64,000 bases of DNA, taken from contig OZ024759.1 of the NCBI GenBank assembly GCA_964016885.1, positions 6,758,001 through 6,822,000 on the forward strand, written 5' to 3'. The notes beneath the pieces are model-generated. The model did no database searches and was not told the DNA's origin. It saw only the letters and a program-made list of their open reading frames with translations. The position numbers and the translations under genes were made by a program. Below are positions 12,801 to 49,768 of the stretch, piece by piece (positions within the stretch are counted from its first letter, which is position 1; every line of letters begins with the position of its first letter). The DNA comes from Eledone cirrhosa (taxonomy: Eukaryota).

Positions 12801-13123
12801 CATGAATTGATGTATGACATACCTCAACGGTCTTGATGGTTCAATTCCAGTATTGGCAATATTAATAACTCCATAAAACTTCATTGTAGAGTGCTTTTAA
12901 TCTATTGTAAAACTATATTCATTGAGTAATCAATGAACCATATTAATCTTTGGTTATATATATATATATATATGTATGCGTGTGTGTGTGTGTGTGTATA
13001 TATGTATATATATATGTATATATATAATCTAAACTATAATAAAGGAAGATCTGCGGGACTGCGTACGTTTTTTTTTTTTTTATCTCGTTTGTAAAATAAG
13101 TTGGATTACTTTGAATAAATAAT

Positions 13124-13400
13124 TGTTTCTACTTTAGGCACAAGGCCAGCAATTACCCAGTGCATTACTGGTACTTTATTTTATCGACCCCGTAAGGATG
13201 AAAGGCAAAGTCAACCTCGGCGGGATTTGAACTCAGATCGTAAAGGGACGTAACTATGCTGGAAAGCATGGCGTCCGACCCTCTACTGATACTGCCAATC
13301 CACCGCCCTAACATGGCGTCTGACCCTCTACCGATACTGCCAATCCACCGCCCTAACATGGCGTCTGACCCTCTACCGATACTGCCAATCCACCACCCTA
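13124..13400 (-). mobile_element. tRNA SINE with 3 tandem 45-bp heads and a 15-bp TSD
   Basis: TSD CTTTGAATAAATAAT at 13109-13123 and 13402-13416. Confidence 0.9.
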
Positions 13401-13740
13401 TCTTTGAATAAATAATGAATGAATATTACATAATTTATCTACTAAATTTCGTAAACATCAATAATTTCGTAAAAGTAAATAATTTCAAATTGACATCTTT
13501 TCAAAGTTGCACTTCCGGTATATCGTCGCCACCACCACCATTGCAACTACCAAATATATAGAAAGAGAGAGTTTGTGATGAGAAAGATAGAGAGATTATG
13601 ATTTTCTACACCTGACGCGTATGATTGTGCACATACATACATCTGTATGTATGAGTATATAACTATTATGAGTATATAACTATAATAGCGCGAACACAAA
13701 CTTATAAAAATACTCTCACGGACATAATTCACACAAACAT

Positions 13741-23022: not shown

Positions 23023-24615
23023 TTCCTTGAATCTCAGTCATTGATGTTGGTTAACTGGAAAGTCCGTTGGATTGAATATCAAGCCACTACCTGCAGCCTC
23101 AGATATTCAGGACGTATCGGAGGGTTCTTGCTGTTCCAAGCAAGCATGCCTTTTGAAGCGTTCCAAAAAGCGTGAAGGGGCCGATTTTCTTTAACCATCC
23201 CTGGAAACTTTTGGAGATAGTCCCCAGTGCGCCTATGACAATCGGGATCACTTTGACTTCATGGCAGTTCCAAATCCTTTTCACCTCCCACTTTAGGTCC
23301 TGATATCGGTTAATTTTCTCCCTCTCCTTCTCTTGCACTCTCGTGTCGAACGGGCAGGCCACATCCACAATCAGACACGATCTTTTTTCTTTGTCCACAA
23401 CCACCAGGTCAGGTCTATTGTGTTCCAGTTTTTTGTCCGTCTGTATCCTAAAATCCCACAGCACCTTCACCTGATTGTTCTCCATCACCGCCTCTGGCCT
23501 ATGCTCATACCATTTCTCAGAATGTGGTAAATTGTTTACTTTGCACAGGTGCCAGTGGATCACCCTGCCCATCACATCGTGTCTCCAGCCCTTATAGTGG
23601 GTCTGGGCTAGGTGTTTACACTCGGACACAATGTGAGCCACAGTCTCCTCTCTCTCTCCACAGATCCTGCACAGTGGGCTAGCCTCCTCCTTGTAAATAT
23701 GGTGCTTCAACCACTTCGTTTTGAGGGCCTGCTCCTGCGCAGCCATTAGCATTCCTTCTGTAGCCTTTTTGAGGTCTCCTCTTCTCAACCAGTTCCATGT
23801 CTGTGGATCTCTAAATTCAGTTTTCTCAAAGAAGGTATTATGAAGGGATTTTCCCTTAAGGCTGCTCTTCCTCCTTGATGTTATTTCCTCCTTGGACATC
23901 CCCTGGCCTACTGTCCCCTCCTTCAGTACAGTTCTGAGCATTGGCTCCTTACTATAGGTCACGTATTTGTATAGGTTGTTTTTCTCCATCTGAACACAGT
24001 CCTCTATGCTGATAAGACCTCTTCCACCCTCAAATCTCCTTAGGTAGAGTCTATCGACATCACTCCTCTTGTGGAACATGTTGTAGATAGTCAATAGCTT
24101 CCTAGTCTTCCTATCCATTTCTTTTTGTTCAGCAACATTCCATCTCAGAATTCCCGCACTGTACCTAATAATAGACACAGCTCGGGAATTTACTGCGCTT
24201 ATGGCATTTCTGCTGTTCAGATGTGACTTCAATACGCTCCTTACTCTCCGAATGTATTCAGTTCTTAACAATTCCTTCATTTTTTTGTTCTTTATGCCAT
24301 CAGCCTCCAGAACGCCCAAATACTTGTATCCTTCCCCAGAGTCAATTTCCTTTATCATCTCACCTGTTGGTATCTGGATCCCGTTACTTCTGCTCAACCT
24401 ACCCCTTCTCATCACAATGACTCCACATTTACTAATACCAAACTGCATTATGCTGCGAAAAGTGAGAGCAGGATACAAGTTGGGAAAGGGAGAGCTTACC
24501 ATCAATCACCTCCTCTTCATGGACGATCTTAAGCTCTTCGGGAAAAGTTAGAAGGAGTTGGATGTGCTTGTTGACACTGTCCGTATTTTCAGCAGTGATA
24601 TATGTATGCAGTTTG

Positions 24616-25311: not shown

Positions 25312-26712
25312 CAAACTGCTACCAGCAGCCTCAGATATTCAGGACGTATCGGAGGGTCCTTGCCGTTCCAAGTAAGCATGGAAGTATTTCAAAATAGAGG
25401 TGGGGGGGGGGCTGATGGTCTTTAGCCAGCCTTGGAAACTCTTCGAGATAGTACCCAGTGCTCCCATGACGATAGAGACAACTTTGATCTCATGGCATTT
25501 CCAAACCCTTTTCAGTTTCCACTTCAGGTTCTGGTACCGGTTAATTCTTCTCCTCTACTTTTCATGTACTCTTGTGTCAAAGGGGCAAGCTACATCTATA
25601 ATCAAACATGATCTTTTTTCCTTGTCAAAAACCACCAAGTCAGGCCTATTATATTCTAATTCTTTATCAGTTTGTATTCTGAAATAACTGTTTCTACTTT
25701 AGGCACAAGGCCAGCAATCACCCAGTGCATTACTGGTACTTTATTTTATCGACCCCGTAAGGATGAAAGGCAAAGTCAACCTCGGCGGGATTTGAACTCA
25801 GATCATAAAGGGACGTAACTATGCTGGAAAGCATGGCGTCCGACCCTCTACCGATACTGCCAATCCACCGCCCTAACATGGCGTCCGACCCTCTACCGAT
25901 ACTGCCAATCCACCACCCTAACATGGCGTCCGACCCTCTACCGATACTGCCAATCCACCACCCTAACATGGCGTCCGACCCTCTACCGATACTGCCAATC
26001 CACCACCCTAACATGGCGTCCGACCCTCTACCGATACTGCCAATCCACCGCCCTAACATGGCGTCCGACCCTCTACCGATACTGCCAATCCACCACCCTA
26101 ACATGGCGTCCGACCCTCTACCGATACTGCCAATCCACCGCCCTAACATGGCGTCCGACCCTCTACCGATACTGCCACTCCACCGCCCTAGCATGACGTC
26201 CGACCCTCTACCGATACTGCCAATCCACCACCCTAACATGGCGTCCGACCCTCTACCGATACTGCCACTCCACCGCCCTAGCATGGCGTCCGACCCTCTA
26301 CCGATACTGCCAATCCACCGCCCTAGCATGGCGTCCGACCCTCTACCGATACTGCCAATCCACCACCCTAACATGGCGTCCGACCCTCTACCGATACTGC
26401 CACTCCACCGCCCTAACATGGCGTCCGACCCTCTACCGATACTGCCAATCCACCGCCCTAGCATGGCGTCCGACCCTCTACCGATACTGCCAATCCACCG
26501 CCCTAGCATGGCGTCCGACCCTCTACCGATACTGCCAATCTGAAATAACACCTTCACCTGGTCGTTTTCCATCACCAATTCTAGCTTATGCTCATACCAC
26601 TCCTCAGCGAGGGGTAAATCATTCAATTTGTACAAATGCCTGTGGATCACTTTTCCTATAATATCATACCTCCATCCTTTATAATGAGTCTGGGTCAGGA
26701 GTTTACCCTCGG
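25312..26712 (-). mobile_element. Second, degenerate Dong-like 3' fragment interrupted by a multi-head SINE
   Basis: Similar to 23085-23620 (CAGCCTCAGATATTCAGGACGTATCGGAGGG; WYEH, MENDQVKVL). Confidence 0.8.
25689..26540 (-). mobile_element. tRNA SINE with about 16 tandem 45-bp heads
   Basis: One body/B-box; flanking direct repeat TCTGAAATAAC on both sides. Confidence 0.9.
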
Positions 26713-26880
26713 AGTTACGGCTCTTTACATTCTGAGTTCAAATCCTGTCGATGTTAGCTTTGCTGTTCATCCTTACAGGGTTGATAAAATAAAGTACCAG
26801 TAACGCACTGGGGTCGATTTAATCGAATCTCCCCTACCCCAAAATTGTTGGCCTTGTGCCTATACAAGAAACAATTATTA
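26712..26880 (+). mobile_element. 5'-truncated SINE of a longer subfamily
   Basis: B-box and body, with an extra segment GGGGTCGATTTAATCGAATCTCCCCTACCCCAAAATTG before the tail. Confidence 0.75.
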
Positions 26881-26897
26881 TTATACAATTATTAGTA

Positions 26898-28533
26898 TAG
26901 GGCGGTGGATTGGCAGTATCGGTAGAGGGTCGGACGCCATGCTAGGGCGGTGGATTGGCAGTATCGGTAGAGGGTCGGACGCCATGCTAGGGCGGTGGAT
27001 TGGCAGTATCGGTAGAGGGTCGGACGCCATGCTAGGGCGGTGGATTGGCAGTATCGGTAGAGGGTCGGACGCCATGCTAGGGCGGTGGATTGGCAGTATC
27101 GGTAGAGGGTCGGACGCCATGCTAGGGCGGTGGATTGGCAGTATCGGTAGAGGGTCGGACGCCATGCTAGGGTGGTGGATTGGCAGTATCGGTAGAGGGT
27201 CGGACGCCATGCTAGGGTGGTGGATTGGCAGTATCGGTAGAGGGTCGGACGCCATGCTAGGGTGGTGGATTGGCAGTATCGGTAGAGGGTCGGACGCCAT
27301 GCTAGGGTGGTGGATTGGCAGTATCGGTAGAGGGTCGGACGCCATGCTAGGGTGGTGGATTGGCAGTATCGGTAGAGGGTCGGACGCCATGCTAGGGTGG
27401 TGGATTGGCAGTATCGGTAGAGGGTCGGACGCCATGCTAGGGCGGTGGATTGGCAGTATCGGTAGAGGGTCGGACGCCATGTTAGGGCGGTGGATTGGCA
27501 GTATCGGTAGAGGGTCGGACGCCATGTTAGGGCGGTGGATTGGCAGTATCGGTAGAGGGTTGGACGCCATGTTAGGGTGGTGGATTGGCAGTATCGGTAG
27601 AGGGTTGGACGCCATGCTAGGGTGGTGGATTGGCAGTATCGGTAGAGGGTCGGACGCCATGTTAGGGCGGTGGATTGGCAGTATCGGTAGAGGGTCGGAC
27701 GCCATGTTAGGGCGGTGGATTGGCAGTATCGGTAGAGGGTCGGACGCCATGCTAGGGTGGTGGATTGGCAGTATCGGTAGAGGGTCGGACGCCATGCTAG
27801 GGTGGTGGATTGGCAGTATCGGTAGAGGGTCGGACGCCATGCTAGGGCGGTGGATTGGCAGTATCGGTAGAGGGTCGGACGCCATGTTAGGGCGGTGGAT
27901 TGGCAGTATCGGTAGAGGGTCGGACGCCATGTTAGGGCGGTGGATTGGCAGTATCGGTAGAGGGTTGGACGCCATGTTAGGGTGGTGGATTGGCAGTATC
28001 GGTAGAGGGTTGGACGCCATGCTAGGGTGGTGGATTGGCAGTATCGGTAGAGGGTCGGACGCCATGTTAGGGCGGTGGATTGGCAGTATCGGTAGAGGGT
28101 CGGACGCCATGTTAGGGCGGTGGATTGGCAGTATCGGTAGAGGGTCGGACGCCATGTTAGGGCGGTGGATTGGCAGTATCGGTAGAGGGTCGGACGCCAT
28201 GTTAGGGCGGTGGATTGGCAGTATCGGTAGAGGGTCGGACGCCATGTTAGGGCGGTGGATTGGCAGTATCGGTAGAGGGTCGGACGCCATGTTAGGGCGG
28301 TGGATTGGCAGTATCGGTAGAGGGTCGGACGCCATGTTAGGGCGGTGGATTGGCAGTATCGGTAGAGGGTCGGACGCCATGCTTTGCAGCAAAGAGTTAC
28401 GGCCCTTTATGGTCTGAGTTCAAATCCCGCCGAAATTAACTTTGCCTTTCATCCTTACGGGGGTTGATGAAATAAAATACCAGTAATGCACTGGGATAAT
28501 TGCTGGCCTTGTGCCTAAAGTAGAAATAATTAT
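26898..28533 (+). mobile_element. tRNA SINE with about 33 tandem 45-bp heads
   Basis: Unit TAGGGYGGTGGATTGGCAGTATCGGTAGAGGGTYGGACGCCATGY, then a single B-box body. Confidence 0.92.
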
Positions 28534-37391: not shown

Positions 37392-37800
37392 ATAATTGTT
37401 TCTACTTTAGGCACAAGGCCAGCAATTACCCAGTACATTACTGGTACTTTATTTTATCGACCCCGTAAGGATGAAAGGAAAAGTTAACCTCGGCGGGTTT
37501 TGAACTCAGACCATAAAGGGCCGTAACTCTTTGCTGCAAAGCATGGCGTCCAACCCTCTACCGATACTGCCAATACACCGCCCTAACATGGCGTCCAACC
37601 CTCTACCGATACTGCCAATACACCGCCCTAACATGGCGTCCAACCCTCTACCGATACTGCCAATACACCGCCCTAACATGGCGTCCAACCCTCTACCGAT
37701 ACTGCCAATACACCGCCCTAACATGGCGTCCAACCCTCTACCGATACTGCCAATACACCGCCCTAACATGGCGTCCGACCCTCTGCCGATACTGTCAATC
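37392..37800 (-). mobile_element. tRNA SINE with about 6 tandem heads
   Basis: 45-bp units with locus-specific variants (TGTATTGG, GGGTTGG). Confidence 0.9.
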
Positions 37801-38061
37801 CAAGGAGTTGACGGACCCAGCATATTTATCAATGCCAATAGGTAATGTAGGATACATTCCCAGAGTATTCACATAGTTATTCGCTTCAATACAATGTGTG
37901 TGTATGTGTGCGTGCGTGTGTGTGTGTGCGGGCGTGCAAAGGTGAATAATGTAGGCATTCACCGTAAAATTGGTGGTGATGGTGGTAGGTAAAGGAAAGA
38001 ATAGGAGCCGATCAAATCGGACCACGGAGACAATGTTTCCATTGGTCTTCACTTCAGAAAT

Positions 38062-42345: not shown

Positions 42346-45230
42346 TTTTCTCTTTCTCTTAATTTCGAGTATATTTTTTTGACCGGCCATCTTCCTGGTG
42401 GCAAGGTTGTAAAAGAAAAGAAATTGTCATCCCTTGAATCGCAAGAATGTTTTGCAAATTTTGAAGGTGCCAGCTATCGCAGCCATTTGTAGACTATGAA
42501 TTAGGGAGCTGCGCTTTTTGTCCGCAAATCCAAGTTCAGTCATACTTTGGTCCAAGCGGGTTGGTATATAACCCGTAGCACCAATAATGATGGGTATGAA
42601 GCTAAAGGTGTATCTTGGATACTGGATTTGTAAACTCCTCATCAATGGTCCGTAGATGTCCTCCTTCTCCTGTATTTTTCTGACAACGTTTACATCAAGT
42701 GGGCAGCTGATCTCCACAACAGAACACGTTTCCAATGTGTGGTCCCAAACTACAATATCAGGCCGGTTGTGCTTTAATTTGGTGGCAGTTTTTATTTTCA
42801 GGTTCCACCAGTATTCCTTAGTGCCATCTGTCTCAATATATTCTTCCTCGTTTGTTGTTAATTTTGTTTTCCGAAGTGCGTTCCAGATGGTTCTAGCTAT
42901 CCCATCGTGTCTCATGGGGAGGTAGTAGCGAGATGACATTCTTTCGCAGCTGGCAACAATGTGGCTTACGTCCTCGATCTTTGTTTTACATAGCCTACAT
43001 TTATTGTCAGCTGCTGGCCCTCCTCTTTTGTGCAGCAGATATTTGGTAGGGAGTTCTTGTTCCTGTATTGCATAGAGATATCCCTCAAGGTGTGATGTCA
43101 TAAACTTGTCGGAACTCCATGCTAGGCTTTTTGAGTGGTTTATCCCCTCTATGGTCTGTGTTTTACGCCTCAAGTATCCATGCACAACTTTTTCTGTAAA
43201 TTGGTCAATTTTTTTATCTTGTTTGAACATTGAATAGGATCTTCCGATTTCTCTGGGTGAGAGATTTATATCAGGCTTTATTCCATATCTCTCCTCCAGA
43301 TCAGTCGCTATTTTAATGATATTTCTTTTTTCATGGTCATAAACCTGGGCAAGATGGTTGCCAACCTTTTTCCTCTGTTGAAGGTGTTGCTTCAGTGTTA
43401 CTATCCGGGTCTCATATGTTGTTAATATTGATTTTAGACCCCGGCCACCTTCCTTGCGTGAGAAGTATAGCCTATCCACAAAGTTCCCAGTAACACTGAG
43501 AAGTTTTCGAGTTCTAACATCCATCTCACTTAGTTCTTGCAATGACCAGTTCAGTAGGCCAAATGTTGGCGTTAGAATTGGCACAGTATAAGTATTGTGG
43601 GCAATGTATTTGTTGTATGCTGACAGTTCTGATGACCATATTTTCTTTACTCTTCTGAGGTATTCAGTTCTGGTTCTCTCCTTATTTATGGGTCCATCAT
43701 ATCTGACATTCTCATCCTGTCCAAGATATCTGTAGTTGTCACCTGACTGCAGAGGTTGTATTGTCAGGCCGTTCATCTCTAGATTTCTAGAGGAGGGCAC
43801 AGCTCTTCCACGTTTTACTGCCAAATATGCACACTTGGACTCACCAAATTTCATTTTGATGTCGGTTGAAAATTGTGTAATGAGGTTCAATTGTTTCTTG
43901 ATGTCATTGATATTTGGCCCATACAACTTCAGGTCATCAACAAAGAAAAGATGGGAGATACTTCTGGGCCCACTTCTTTGTCCACCTTGTTTCCTGAGTA
44001 GGTAAGATAGTGGATTCAGTGAGAGAACGAAGAGTAGCACTGACAAGCTATCACCCTGAAAGATGCCCTTCTGGTAATGTATCTTATCAGTCTTAACCTG
44101 CTCCTTCTCACCTCTAAGGATCAAACTGGTGTACCAGTTCTTGGTCAGGCGTTCAACAGCAGCTACCAATGGTTGTGGGACTTTAGCTAACTGTAAAGCC
44201 TTAACAATCCACCCATGAGGTACACTATCAAATGCTTTTTGATAGTCCAGCCACACGACAGTCATGTTTCTGCGATTCTTTGTTGTTTTTTCCTGAATCA
44301 TTTTGTTAGTTAGAAGGTGATCTATGCAACCCCACACCTCCCTCTTTCCACCAGCTTGCTCAGGTGTTATGATGTTGTTGGTATATATAATTTATACATG
44401 ATGTTTTGGCAGGCAATTGGGCGGTAATTTTTAGCAAGGGTGGTTTGGCTATTTTGGGGAATGAGGAGAGTAGAGGCAGTTGATAACCATCTGGGCAGTT
44501 CTTGTGTGCCCTTAATGGTTTCTGTAAACAGCCGTATGAGATCTTGCCGATAGAAAGTGAAATTCTTCAACCAGTATCCTGTAATGAGGTCTGGGCCTGG
44601 CGATTTCCTATTCGACATTTTCTGTAGAGCTGTTTCCAGTATTGACCCATCTATGTCATATTGTTTTGTCTGGACATGTTGGCAGTAGTCTTGTTCCAGT
44701 TCTTTTAGCCAATTAGCTTGTCTGTTGAATCCGTCATCCGTTTCCCATACAGATCTCCAGTAGCTCTCAACCTGTTCTTTTGAAGGGGTGTCATTTACAG
44801 AGATTGAGCTTTTGCCACCGAAGCTGCGATAAACTGATTTAGGATCTCTGGTAAACAATCTATTTAGCACTTGTCGTTTATGTGCTGTTGACTTATATTT
44901 TAGTCTTTCTGTTGTAGCTGTGAGTTGTTGTTTCAACTGGTGTAATTTGGAGTTCAAAGTTTTAAATTTTGTATCTCCAAATCGTCTCTCTAACTTTTTC
45001 TTTAGGTCTTCCTGGTGTCGTGTGAAGTTGCTCTCTATGTTGCATTTCATAACGACTGCGATGTGTGAGATACAACATTTTGTATCAGGGACAAAATTTT
45101 GGATTTTAAATTTCGCATCCACGCTGGTTCAGGCTTTCTGTTTGTATCTTGATTGCGTGGTTTTAGATGTGTGTTATATGATAGCAATGTGACAGCTGAA
45201 ACATATAACAAAACATTAAGCGTTTCTTTT
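42346..45230 (-). mobile_element. R4-like RLE LINE family A, about 2.9 kb, flanked by (ATGT)n
   Basis: SPGPDLI..YWLK, NYRPIAC, WLDYQKAFDSVPH, GIFQGDSLS, HLFFVDDLKLY, CRLC..HIVASC, RHD, RPDIVV..EISCP. Confidence 0.95.
42427..44337 (-). CDS. Reverse transcriptase, CCHC and restriction-like endonuclease (open 636-aa segment; frameshift to upstream segment 44367-45122)
   Basis: RT and RLE motifs listed for the element. Confidence 0.85.
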   Translation of the reverse strand: MWGCIDHLLTNKMIQEKTTKNRRNMTVVWLDYQKAFDSVPHGWIVKALQLAKVPQPLVAAVERLTKNWYTSLILRGEKEQVKTDKIHYQKGIFQGDSLSVLLFVLSLNPLSYLLRKQGGQRSGPRSISHLFFVDDLKLYGPNINDIKKQLNLITQFSTDIKMKFGESKCAYLAVKRGRAVPSSRNLEMNGLTIQPLQSGDNYRYLGQDENVRYDGPINKERTRTEYLRRVKKIWSSELSAYNKYIAHNTYTVPILTPTFGLLNWSLQELSEMDVRTRKLLSVTGNFVDRLYFSRKEGGRGLKSILTTYETRIVTLKQHLQQRKKVGNHLAQVYDHEKRNIIKIATDLEERYGIKPDINLSPREIGRSYSMFKQDKKIDQFTEKVVHGYLRRKTQTIEGINHSKSLAWSSDKFMTSHLEGYLYAIQEQELPTKYLLHKRGGPAADNKCRLCKTKIEDVSHIVASCERMSSRYYLPMRHDGIARTIWNALRKTKLTTNEEEYIETDGTKEYWWNLKIKTATKLKHNRPDIVVWDHTLETCSVVEISCPLDVNVVRKIQEKEDIYGPLMRSLQIQYPRYTFSFIPIIIGATGYIPTRLDQSMTELGFADKKRSSLIHSLQMAAIAGTFKICKTFLRFKG

Positions 45231-45389: not shown

Positions 45390-46518
45390 AGATTTCTGTT
45401 TATTTGCCACTAGGGCACAAAAGAAAGGGACATGTACATGGGTGGGGGGAGTTTACATGAAAATCGAGTAAGAAAATTATAACAAACAAAATAATAACAA
45501 AAAGGTCCTCAATAGGGAGGGATCGTTTTGGGGTCACACACACCCCCGAAAAAAAGTGTGCGACCTTTCTCCACGGGAGCACAAAGAGAGGGTGCTCCCT
45601 TCTTTCTGTTCCACCTACAGGCTGAGGTAGAGAGAAGGCCCATTCACACGGGCCATTCTCGCAACTTTCACCTACCTTTCATAAAACTTGCTGGAGTGGA
45701 GCACCTCTCTCTCCATCCTGATCCTTCTTCCGAAATGGTATCGGAAGAAAAGGACCAGTTGTTGGCCGGAGAGAAAGGTGTCCGACCTCAGCCCTTTCAG
45801 ACGCGTCCATCATATAGCCTCTTTTACCATGGCTATTACACAGAGGAAGACCGCCTCTCCTTCATTTTTGAAGGGGGGAGGCGGCTTGATCGTTACAATG
45901 GACTCGGTGGTCAACCTAATTGGTCCCACCCGTGACAGCAGTTGTTCGACATAGCCCCACAGATCGGCAACGCCCGGGCAGTGCACCAATGCGTGCGCGA
46001 CGGTTTCCTCGTCGCGCACGCATCTGGGACAGATCTTTTTCGAGGGGTCCCTACCCGGGCGCCCGTGTCTGTAGAGCTTATCCCGAACGGGCAGAGCCCC
46101 TCGGTAGCACTGCCAGGCCAAGGACTTCTGGAAGTTGTCCATAGGTCCCGGGCCGAAAGTCCTAACGAACAGACTGGCCAGTTCGTCCTCCTCCATGCCT
46201 AGGGCTTCTCCGAGGGCGTCGTCGCACCCGCTAACCACCAGCCCTCTATAGAATGACGAGGTGGAGTCTCCGTCGATAGCGGGGTCCGCCTGCCAGAGAG
46301 CCGTGAGCGCCTGGGCACACTCGGTGTGCCAGTCGCCCAGTTTTCTCGGTCTTTGCTTCACCCAGGACTGCAGCTCGGTGAGCGAGACGAGCCTCGGGAA
46401 GGCTCGCCTCACAAACGGGGCCCACACCGGTTGACCGGTGAGGAATACGTGGAGGTGCCTTAGCCTCAATGTGTGTTTACGCATTTTTAGCCACGGCATC
46501 CCCAGCCCTCCTTTCAAA
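45390..46518 (-). mobile_element. L1/Tx1-clade LINE 3' fragment
   Basis: KGGLGMP, AWQCYRGALPVRDKL, CPRC...ETVAHALVHC (zf-RVT-like); AATAAA near the 3' end; GATA/GACA repeats on both flanks. Confidence 0.8.
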
Positions 46519-46534
46519 GACAGACAGACAGATA

Positions 46535-47050
46535 GATTTCTTTATTTGCCATAAGGGTGCACAGGGGACATTAGAGGACTTACAGCGGAAGTTTTACATT
46601 TAAACATGTAAACAGTTTTAACAATTATAAAATAAATAATAAACAATCAAAATCCCCAATAGGGGGAACGTTACAATTGGGTTGTTTTACACCCCGTAGA
46701 TAGAACAACCCTCAACACCAAGAGCATGTTTTGCAAGAGCTTGTCCTCCTCAACCTACAGGTTTATATACAGAGTAGGTCCATTCACTCCATTTTCACAA
46801 CATTCACCCATCTTTCAGAAAATTGGCTGGGGTGCAGCACCTCTCTATCCATTCTCACCCTTCTTCTGAAATAGTATTTGAAAAGGGCGATGAGGTCCAG
46901 AGAGGAAGGTGTCTGTCCTCAGTCCTTTCAATTTAGTCCACCATAACCACTAGACAGAGGAAAACTGCCTCTCCTTCGGTGTTAAACGAAGGTGGTGGGG
47001 TAATCCTCACCATAGACTTGACTGACAGCCGGATTCGTCCCACACTTGAC
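46535..47050 (-). mobile_element. Second, diverged L1/Tx1-like 3' fragment
   Basis: VGRIRLSVKSMVRITPPPSFNTEGEAVFLCLV is homologous to the preceding copy. Confidence 0.75.
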
Positions 47051-48683: not shown

Positions 48684-48797
48684 AATAATAACAACAACAA
48701 CACCACCTAAGTTTGAATCATTTTGACAAAACATTTCACAGAAAATAGTTTTGAAAAAAGAAATATTTGCATTTTTTTTTCTTCTTTTCTTCACTTT

Positions 48798-49590
48798 CCA
48801 TTGGTCTTTCTATTGCTGATACTATCTGTCAGTCATAACTCCTGGTAGAAGAAAGGAGCTGGTCATCAGATCAGACCAATGAAACAATGTCTCCATTGGT
48901 CTTTCCATTCCTGATACTATCTGTCAGTCACAACTCCTGGTAGAAGAAAGGAGCTGGTCATCAGATCAGACCAAGGAAACAATGTCTCCATTGGTCTTTC
49001 CATTCCTGATACTATCTGTCAGTCACAACTCCTGGTAGAAGAAAGGAGCTGGTCATCAGATCAGACCAAGGAAACAATGTCTCCATTGGTCTTTCCATTC
49101 CTGATACTATCTGTCAGTCACAACTCCTGGTAGAAGAAAGGAGCTGGTCATCAGATCAGACCAAGGAAACAATGTTTCCATTGGTCTTTCTATTGCTGAT
49201 ACTATCTGTGAGTCACAACTCCAGGCAGAAGAAAGGAGCTGATTGTCAGATCAGACCAAGGAAACAATGTCTCCATTGGTCTTTCCATTACTGATACTAT
49301 CTGTCAGTCATAACTCCTGGTAGAAGAAAGGAGCTGGTCATCAGATCAGACCAAGGAAACAATGTCTCCATTGGTCTTTCCATTACTGATACTATCTGTC
49401 AGTCATAACTCCTAGCAAAAGAAAGGAGCTGGTCATCAGATCAGACCAAGGAAACAATGTTTCCATTGGTCTTTCTATTGCTGATACTATCTGTAAGTCA
49501 CAACTCCTGGTAGAAGAAAGGAGCTGGTCATCAGATCAGACCAAGGAAACAATGTTTCCATTGGTCTTTCTATTGCTGATACTATCTGTC
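48798..49590. repeat. 95-bp tandem repeat, about 8 units, with two internal hairpins
   Basis: CCATTGGTC recurs at 48893, 48988, 49083; a single related sequence lies at 38003-38050. Confidence 0.93.
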
Positions 49591-49768
49591 ATGTGGTGTG
49601 GTTTCTGTAGAGGTCTGTCCACCATTTCCACATCCATGGTCAATCATTTATTCGACTTATTTGACTATTTTATGAATTATGATAGTTTTTCACATTAAAA
49701 TCCAAGTAAATTTAATATTTGTGTGTGTATATGTGTGTACGAAGACGCACTTATGTATCTATCTATCC

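Follow-up and report, generated by a model that had tools for sequence, protein, structure and literature searches.

Tandem arrays of the 45-bp head of a SINE, each running into a single body, occur in the window analysed here and at hundreds of other loci of the same genome. Judging by how sequence variants are distributed among their units, the expansion of the long arrays after insertion is well supported; as for the seed, we favour with modest confidence the view that copies landed with two heads, from sources already bearing the head-to-head junction, and that the extra head then behaved as a minisatellite, expanding or contracting where it stood.

Four multi-head SINE copies in the window

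The window (the whole stretch of 64,000 nucleotides) lies on C20 (37.3 Mb) of the 3.0-Gb genome G000 and holds ten SINE copies with both head and body, of which four are multi-headed, with 3, 16, 33, and 6 heads. The unit maps place the heads of each array at a strict 45-bp spacing, followed by one B-box body, and TRF reports, at period 45, 3.0 copies at 13267–13400, 15.8 at 25832–26540, 33.0 at 26898–28383, and 5.7 at 37542–37799; both agree with the head counts of an earlier note on this DNA.

The longest array, on the plus strand, comprises 33 heads (26899–28383), each with an A-box-like motif at bases 13–24, and continues into a single body with B box, conserved middle, and ATT tail (28384–28533, plus strand) of the subfamily without a 2-nt deletion. 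This 33-head element lies within the AT tail of an older, 5′-truncated, long-tailed SINE relative (26712–26881, plus strand), and its TSD is ambiguous for that reason. The other three elements lie on the minus strand. At 25689, the 16 heads (25830–26540), of which the outermost is 5′-truncated (from about base 10) and the inner ones are full length, adjoin a body of the majority subfamily, which carries the 2-nt deletion (25685–25829). At 13124, three heads (13265–13399), with A34 in the outer two only and A23 in the inner one only, precede another majority-subfamily body (13120–13264). The earlier note had described TSDs enclosing the whole array at these two loci, and we find the same, with 11 bp at 25689 (25678–25688 and 26539–26549) and 15 bp at 13124 (13109–13123 and 13402–13416). 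The 37541 element has six heads (37540–37802), with T10 and T33 in the inner five and not in the truncated outermost one, and a body running into (TA)n (37392–37539); no TSD was found for it.

The head-to-head junction reads CATGYT followed directly by AGGG at all four loci, as had been noted; AGGG is also the start of full-length single-head copies, and the array unit is identical to bases 1–45 of single-head copies. Base 44 is C in the body-adjacent head and T at the junction before that head, again in all four arrays. That variants are locus-specific holds in part, some of them (T5, T33, and A34) being recurrent CpG changes. The ORFs across the head arrays are stop-free repeat frames.

A few other features of these loci deserve mention. 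The 16-head and 33-head arrays (25830–28383) are oriented head to head with 358 bp between them; their outermost units carry C44, a state that most arrays do not show there. Next to the 25689 element lies a piece resembling 23462–23626. Two multi-head SINEs without TSD, at 37802–37895 and at locus L109, abut the end of one other repeat, which ends in (TA)n at locus L319 and which we read as a shared insertion target.

The SINE family

The SINE, probably of tRNA type, is about 190 bp long, with one mismatch between the A-box-like motif of its head and the A-box consensus, a B-box core at bases 78–80, and a simple-repeat tail (ATT). A whole-genome motif count gave 48,807 exact head–body junctions in G000, 34,508 of them (71%) with the 2-nt-deletion body that defines the majority subfamily; random genome samples contained 60–120 head-bearing copies per Mb, and the family would amount to some 250,000 copies. 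Single copies have a median TSD of 14 bp (n = 31 full-length copies with a called TSD). Searches for tRNA homology returned no gene with ARAGORN and no tRNA match in Rfam at E ≤ 10, and folding predicts a rod instead of a cloverleaf. In body and tail the family resembles abundant octopod SINEs, and it may be related to the octopus tRNA SINEs with a Nin/Deu-like middle. SINE DNA is given as 11.6% for O. vulgaris (PMC13282606), and the accessible parts of the octopus tRNA SINE papers (PMC4758252, PMC5804259, and PMC13282606) make no mention of head arrays. In X1 and X5, whole SINE copies are often joined tail to head, new copies entering the ATT tails of older ones.

Scale and reality of the head-to-head junction

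Against the 48,807 head–body junctions stand 5,918 head-to-head junctions in G000, and all 100 matches listed for the latter have the same 2-nt gap. A 35-nt junction motif matched 3,425 times and its reversed control not once, so the junction is not a product of chance. With a multi-head locus defined as a second head preceding head and body, with at most 3 mismatches over 65 bases, G000 contains 372 young loci, of which 100 were listed, 90 retrieved, and 88 analysed (two were unparsable); one has to keep in mind that the query biased this set toward near-consensus heads with T at base 44. The genome-wide distribution of head number, a check proposed in the earlier note, has two heads as its commonest class (29 of the 88 loci, next to 27 with 3–5 heads and 32 with 6 or more) and extends from 2 to 103 heads, the latter at L168. 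TSDs of at least 9 bp were called at 44 of the 88. Multi-head copies make up about 1.4–2.2% of comparable copies when calibrated on 1.0 Mb of random stretches that yielded only 5–8 matches, and 1 of the 84 SINE copies in a direct random sample. Some 6.5 kb of junction matches at G000:C1:6497072-6503579 mark a very long head array.

Reads and contigs were compared with a reference made of one head plus 47 bases of body. A back-joint of 45 was present in 211 raw reads of X21, with 20 start places, and also in contigs of X1 (organism A), X5 (organism C), and X7 (organism D); among the joints listed, it dominates, other phases of the head repeat (38, 41, and 77–84) being minor. Since independent short reads contain the junction, as do two other organisms, it is real, common to several species, and not an assembly artefact. 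The minor 38-bp phase is seen in X21, X1, and X5.

Growth of the arrays after insertion

In arrays of at least five heads, 418 non-CpG variant calls are common to several units, against 80 singletons. Neighbouring units are more alike than shuffled ones in 8 of 30 arrays, the test not being significant in the other 22; for the 33-head array of the window, p = 0.002. In that array, a block of nine units is duplicated, and units 13–18 recur as units 22–27. In the 37541 array, two variants fill the five inner units and are missing from the outer one, and the middle unit of the 13124 array is a mosaic of outer and inner heads. Repeated jumping at insertion would give independently mutating units; this is not the pattern seen, which thus speaks for growth in place. 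Iterative template jumping, put forward in the earlier note as a possible source of the long arrays, is contradicted by the variants common to several units and by the duplicated blocks, and it is not needed to explain array length. In the old arrays L031, L032, L038, and L073, CpG decay includes transversions (C to A and G to T) as well as transitions.

The two-head state

Two-head copies look like normal insertions in TSD length, 5′ truncation, and body age. TSDs of at least 9 bp were called at 16 of the 29, the median TSD is 15 for multi-head and 14 for single-head copies, 55 of 110 outer heads start at the full-length 5′ end vs. 108 of 236 single heads, and mean body divergence is 3.2 for two-head and 3.4 for single-head copies. 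Where the outer head is truncated and the inner heads are full (as at 25689), the inner heads were not copied from the locus’s own single head; because these inner units begin at base 1, the junction must have come from RNA or from another locus. Duplication in place of the copy’s own single head is excluded at such loci, and also by the absence of private variants common to both heads in 32 two-head elements.

The proposal of an expansion from a two-head master can be kept as regards growth from a two-head seed after insertion, to which the variant patterns point; a single master lineage was not found. Multi-head copies carry the 2-nt-deletion body in 92 of 113 cases and many other bodies in the remaining 21, and the deletion was rejected as a mark of the master on account of its presence in 34,508 of all 48,807 copies. 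Comparing 88 multi-head with 54 young single-head copies, matched for subfamily and youth, revealed no strong diagnostic body site: the main body haplotype is identical, differences at body sites are weak (p about 0.001–0.02), and a test of rare-variant sharing was borderline (p = 0.04–0.05). Single heads showed no excess of bases from an upstream head among 31 junctions. Early termination of Pol III in the T run was also considered as the cause of the unit end; it would give units of 46–47 bp, and there were none among the 100 junctions listed of the 5,918 or among the best-supported joints listed.

Chromosomal distribution

Head arrays lie in regions where minisatellites abound. Minisatellites cover 6.2% of big-chromosome interiors, 21.9% of small chromosomes, 20.9% of the window, and 9.8% of the 140 kb beside it; the window also contains 31-, 38-, 95-, 20-, and 16-bp arrays. 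None of 32 arrays with at least six heads lies in a big-chromosome interior, and the interiors of C1–4, with 46% of the bases, have only 4 of 88 multi-head loci. Enrichment is general on small chromosomes and apparent toward chromosome ends. The bias extends to two-head copies, 2 of 29 of which lie in big-chromosome interiors vs. 13 of 39 controls (p = 0.016; binomial p of 0.0007–0.05 for expected shares of 34–20%); the control consisted of 39 loci of another subfamily plus 1.0 Mb of random stretches, the random sampling having left out C5–C18. Multi-head loci also cluster, 17 of 51 gaps being under 1 Mb vs. 8.1 in simulations, and their local share is 4 of 10 copies in the window, 1 of 5 in the adjoining 140 kb, and 1 of 84 in random samples.

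Base 44 and a predicted hairpin

Base 44 is C in 223 of 236 single heads and 110 of 113 body-adjacent heads, and T in 96 of 113 heads preceding the body-adjacent one; this last count is biased by the query, and T44 is the proximal junction base in all six unselected arrays. The simplest source for the C44 of inner units would be the last head, through misaligned exchange. The prevailing base in organism C is G44 (117–118 contigs vs. 12–20 with C, these being contig counts, whose depths are not copy numbers); a junction base that differs between species points to an inherited junction and not to a fixed enzyme bias. Inheritance alone does not explain how variable the base is: otherwise perfect junctions have T in 28 cases, C in 8, G in 4, and A in 2, and base 44 shows 6 transversions vs. 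0.16 per other non-CpG site (p = 2e-8). Mixed T/G and T/A arrays occur (9 of 52 arrays with a transversion state at base 44), which implies either that this base can mutate once the element is in place or that the junction originated more than once.

A rod-like RNA hairpin is predicted over SINE bases 3–91 (z of −2.5 and −3.2), with an apex unchanged in an eight-copy consensus, and the final base of the unit is the last to be paired in the 5′ arm, just before the apical loop. The fold of the full SINE is not significant (z of −1.0), and none of 25 pairs is compensatory in eight copies. The coincidence of unit end and apex was noticed post hoc, and we treat it as a lead, not a finding, for a structure-guided origin.

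How the seed may have arisen and spread

According to the favoured explanation, the junction from base 45 back to base 1, mostly with T44 in this genome, would have arisen early and been handed on. In a multi-head source, transcription would usually depend on the A box closest to the B box and yield one-head copies; now and then the A box one unit further upstream would be used instead, and a LINE enzyme would insert the resulting two-head RNA with normal TSD and 5′ truncation. The later addition of units, to 100 or more, is shown by the variant patterns; the two 45-bp direct repeats would misalign, with unequal exchange, slippage, or conversion as the probable mechanism. Arrays would persist where the region favours expansion (small chromosomes and chromosome ends), and two-head copies elsewhere would collapse to one head. 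Several points count against this scheme. No source lineage is visible, and inheritance alone leaves the variability of base 44 unaccounted for. The avoidance of interiors and the clustering require an extra assumption, namely many or long-lived sources together with regional collapse. Use of the upstream A box would need a spacing just beyond that of yeast tRNA genes, the distance from it to the B box being about 97–99 nt by simple arithmetic and the A–B spacing reported for those genes being 31–93 nt (PMC5356446, in the text available). For the spread of the junction, we nevertheless favour retrotransposition from multi-head sources over ectopic conversion or a fresh jump.

Ectopic gene conversion, by which a broken one-head copy would be repaired from a nearby multi-head copy (about 190 bp shared) and gain heads before local expansion, is a serious alternative that we consider less probable. 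It fits the subfamily spectrum and the TSDs and 5′ truncation matching those of single-head copies without extra assumptions, agrees with a species-specific junction base, and directly accounts for the clustering of loci and the regional bias of even two-head copies; yet it predicts private variants in both heads, which none of the 32 elements has (a test of low power, about one being expected by rough estimate), and bodies older than heads, whose divergence is equal, and its left homology arm would be 45 bp or less. We rate as unlikely a fresh template jump at each insertion, in which the LINE reverse transcriptase, on reaching base 1, would append one or two bases without a template and switch to the 5′ half of a SINE RNA cut at the apical hairpin loop, giving a two-head copy that expands locally. 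The exact end of the unit at the hairpin apex, the occurrence of all four letters at base 44, and the many subfamilies affected would suit such a jump. It is difficult to reconcile with a junction of fixed length, when the genuine 5′ ends carry anything from 0 to 13 untemplated bases, or with a dominant base 44 that differs between species; it does not predict the regional bias, the mixed T/G and T/A arrays call for changes after insertion or several junctions, and the hairpin behind it, noticed post hoc, has no compensatory pairs and is not significant in the full element. A single jump may all the same have made the original two-head seed. Doubtful, in our view, but worth stating is a combined scheme, in which the apex of the SINE hairpin, as RNA or DNA, guides an error-prone event that makes or renews the junction and leaves a one-base scar at base 44, and in which multi-head copies pass the junction on to neighbouring ordinary copies or act as sources with their own upstream A boxes; if true, a minisatellite seed would be spreading itself through the family, and the scar would serve as an internal marker by which independent events could be counted.

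It is very improbable that arrays were complete from the moment of insertion, whether through repeated template jumps or through rolling-circle synthesis on a 45-nt RNA circle: TSDs do enclose arrays of up to 28 heads, some short arrays lack internal variants, and L188 and L189 have one non-T base at 44 throughout, but the excess of shared over singleton variants, together with block duplications and variants limited to inner or outer units, implies copying after mutation, and the confinement of long arrays to unstable regions adds to a picture that already contradicts this origin for long arrays. An assembly artefact is scarcely credible. The exact copy numbers of the window arrays are those of the assembly and thus provisional; the 45-bp back-joint is nonetheless present in raw reads of X21 and contigs of X1, X5, and X7, and the arrays show an internal order of variants and are set in unique flanks that carry TSDs.

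Comparison with known systems

The closest likeness is with the squamate satellites sSat1-3, in which, as far as the available text of Vassetzky et al. (2023, PMC10702118) describes them, the repeated unit corresponds to a portion of a tRNA SINE and, in its terminal copy, continues into the rest of that SINE, one phase dominates over many loci with few to hundreds of units, and there are locus-specific subvariants and a bias to chromosome ends. Their units measure about 70–290 nt, the main snake unit (Squam3 bases 42–108) containing box B (PMC10702118), whereas the present unit has 45 nt counted from base 1, contains box A only, and is attached to a whole body, often with a TSD, in a different SINE and phylum; the large two-head class and the variable base specific to the junction are further differences. 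A sub-SINE unit whose terminal copy extends into the SINE, an apparent subtelomeric preference, and at least four middle monomers at many loci (32 of the 88 loci have at least six heads, as do three of the four window arrays) place the arrays in the class of SINE-derived satellites only, apart from sSat1-3 proper as that paper describes them.

The Alu units described by Jurka and Gentles in 2006 reportedly comprise about the first 44 bases, A box included. Short direct repeats on either side of the unit account for the Alu minisatellites, and the present SINE unit has none: no repeats of this Haber–Louis type were seen in the present subfamilies, in which bases 46 onward are unlike bases 1 onward, and a faintly similar stretch follows the head in 1 of the 17 older SINE relatives shown (L265). 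Another older relative, near position 2125 of L193, has a 29-bp duplication of the A-box region bounded by a short direct repeat, the classical slippage pattern. The 5′-Alu tandems of Ahmed and Liang (2012, PMC3389668; 136 cases, mean unit 88.6 bp) share with our arrays a partial 5′ SINE unit repeated beside a full element and, in the accessible part of that paper, initiation at or after insertion followed by gradual expansion; here, in contrast, hundreds of loci have one junction, and inner units are full length despite a truncated outer head.

SVA, with its VNTR, and mouse L1, with its 5′ monomers, are retroposons with an expandable array, as is LTR12. In these, as in the present family, a seed repeat is likely spread by retrotransposition, its length then changing at each locus (for the LTR12 repeats, see PMC3389668). 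Unlike in LTR12, SVA, and L1, the array concerns about 1–2% of copies, and the repeat is a Pol III A-box head; a dedicated dimeric or VNTR-bearing SINE subfamily was not found, multi-head and single-head copies having the same main haplotype and weak site differences.

The earlier note’s suggestion that a Pol III promoter can repeatedly become a satellite holds as to the kind of process, and such routes from mobile elements are already described in the accessible text of PMC10702118 and PMC3389668; the 45-nt unit with the A box only, joined to a full body, is a new case. No paper listed in our searches of the openly accessible literature describes such arrays for a SINE of a cephalopod, though subscription papers, Repbase, Dfam, or supplements may do so. 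The seeding of tandem repeats by dispersed elements is for the most part poorly explained, a mechanism having been assigned to only about 6% of the human cases, according to the part of PMC3389668 available. The present system has hundreds of young loci with one seed, at stages from 2 to 100 units, with TSDs kept and a marker base at the junction; with tens of thousands of one-head copies as controls, one can thus measure how a minisatellite is born, expands, and collapses, and how strongly it is biased by region. Multi-head loci are also candidate VNTR markers.

Two minor observations on the window may be added. Its 95-bp minisatellite (48797–49591) includes a stretch of another dispersed repeat seen in many of the retrieved loci and is thus a second array derived from a mobile element. 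LINE fragments with RVT_1 and/or zf-RVT matches lie on the minus strand at 42430–44391, 23102–24505 (a match below the Pfam cut-off), and 45813–46541, and they possibly represent the partner clade of the SINE.
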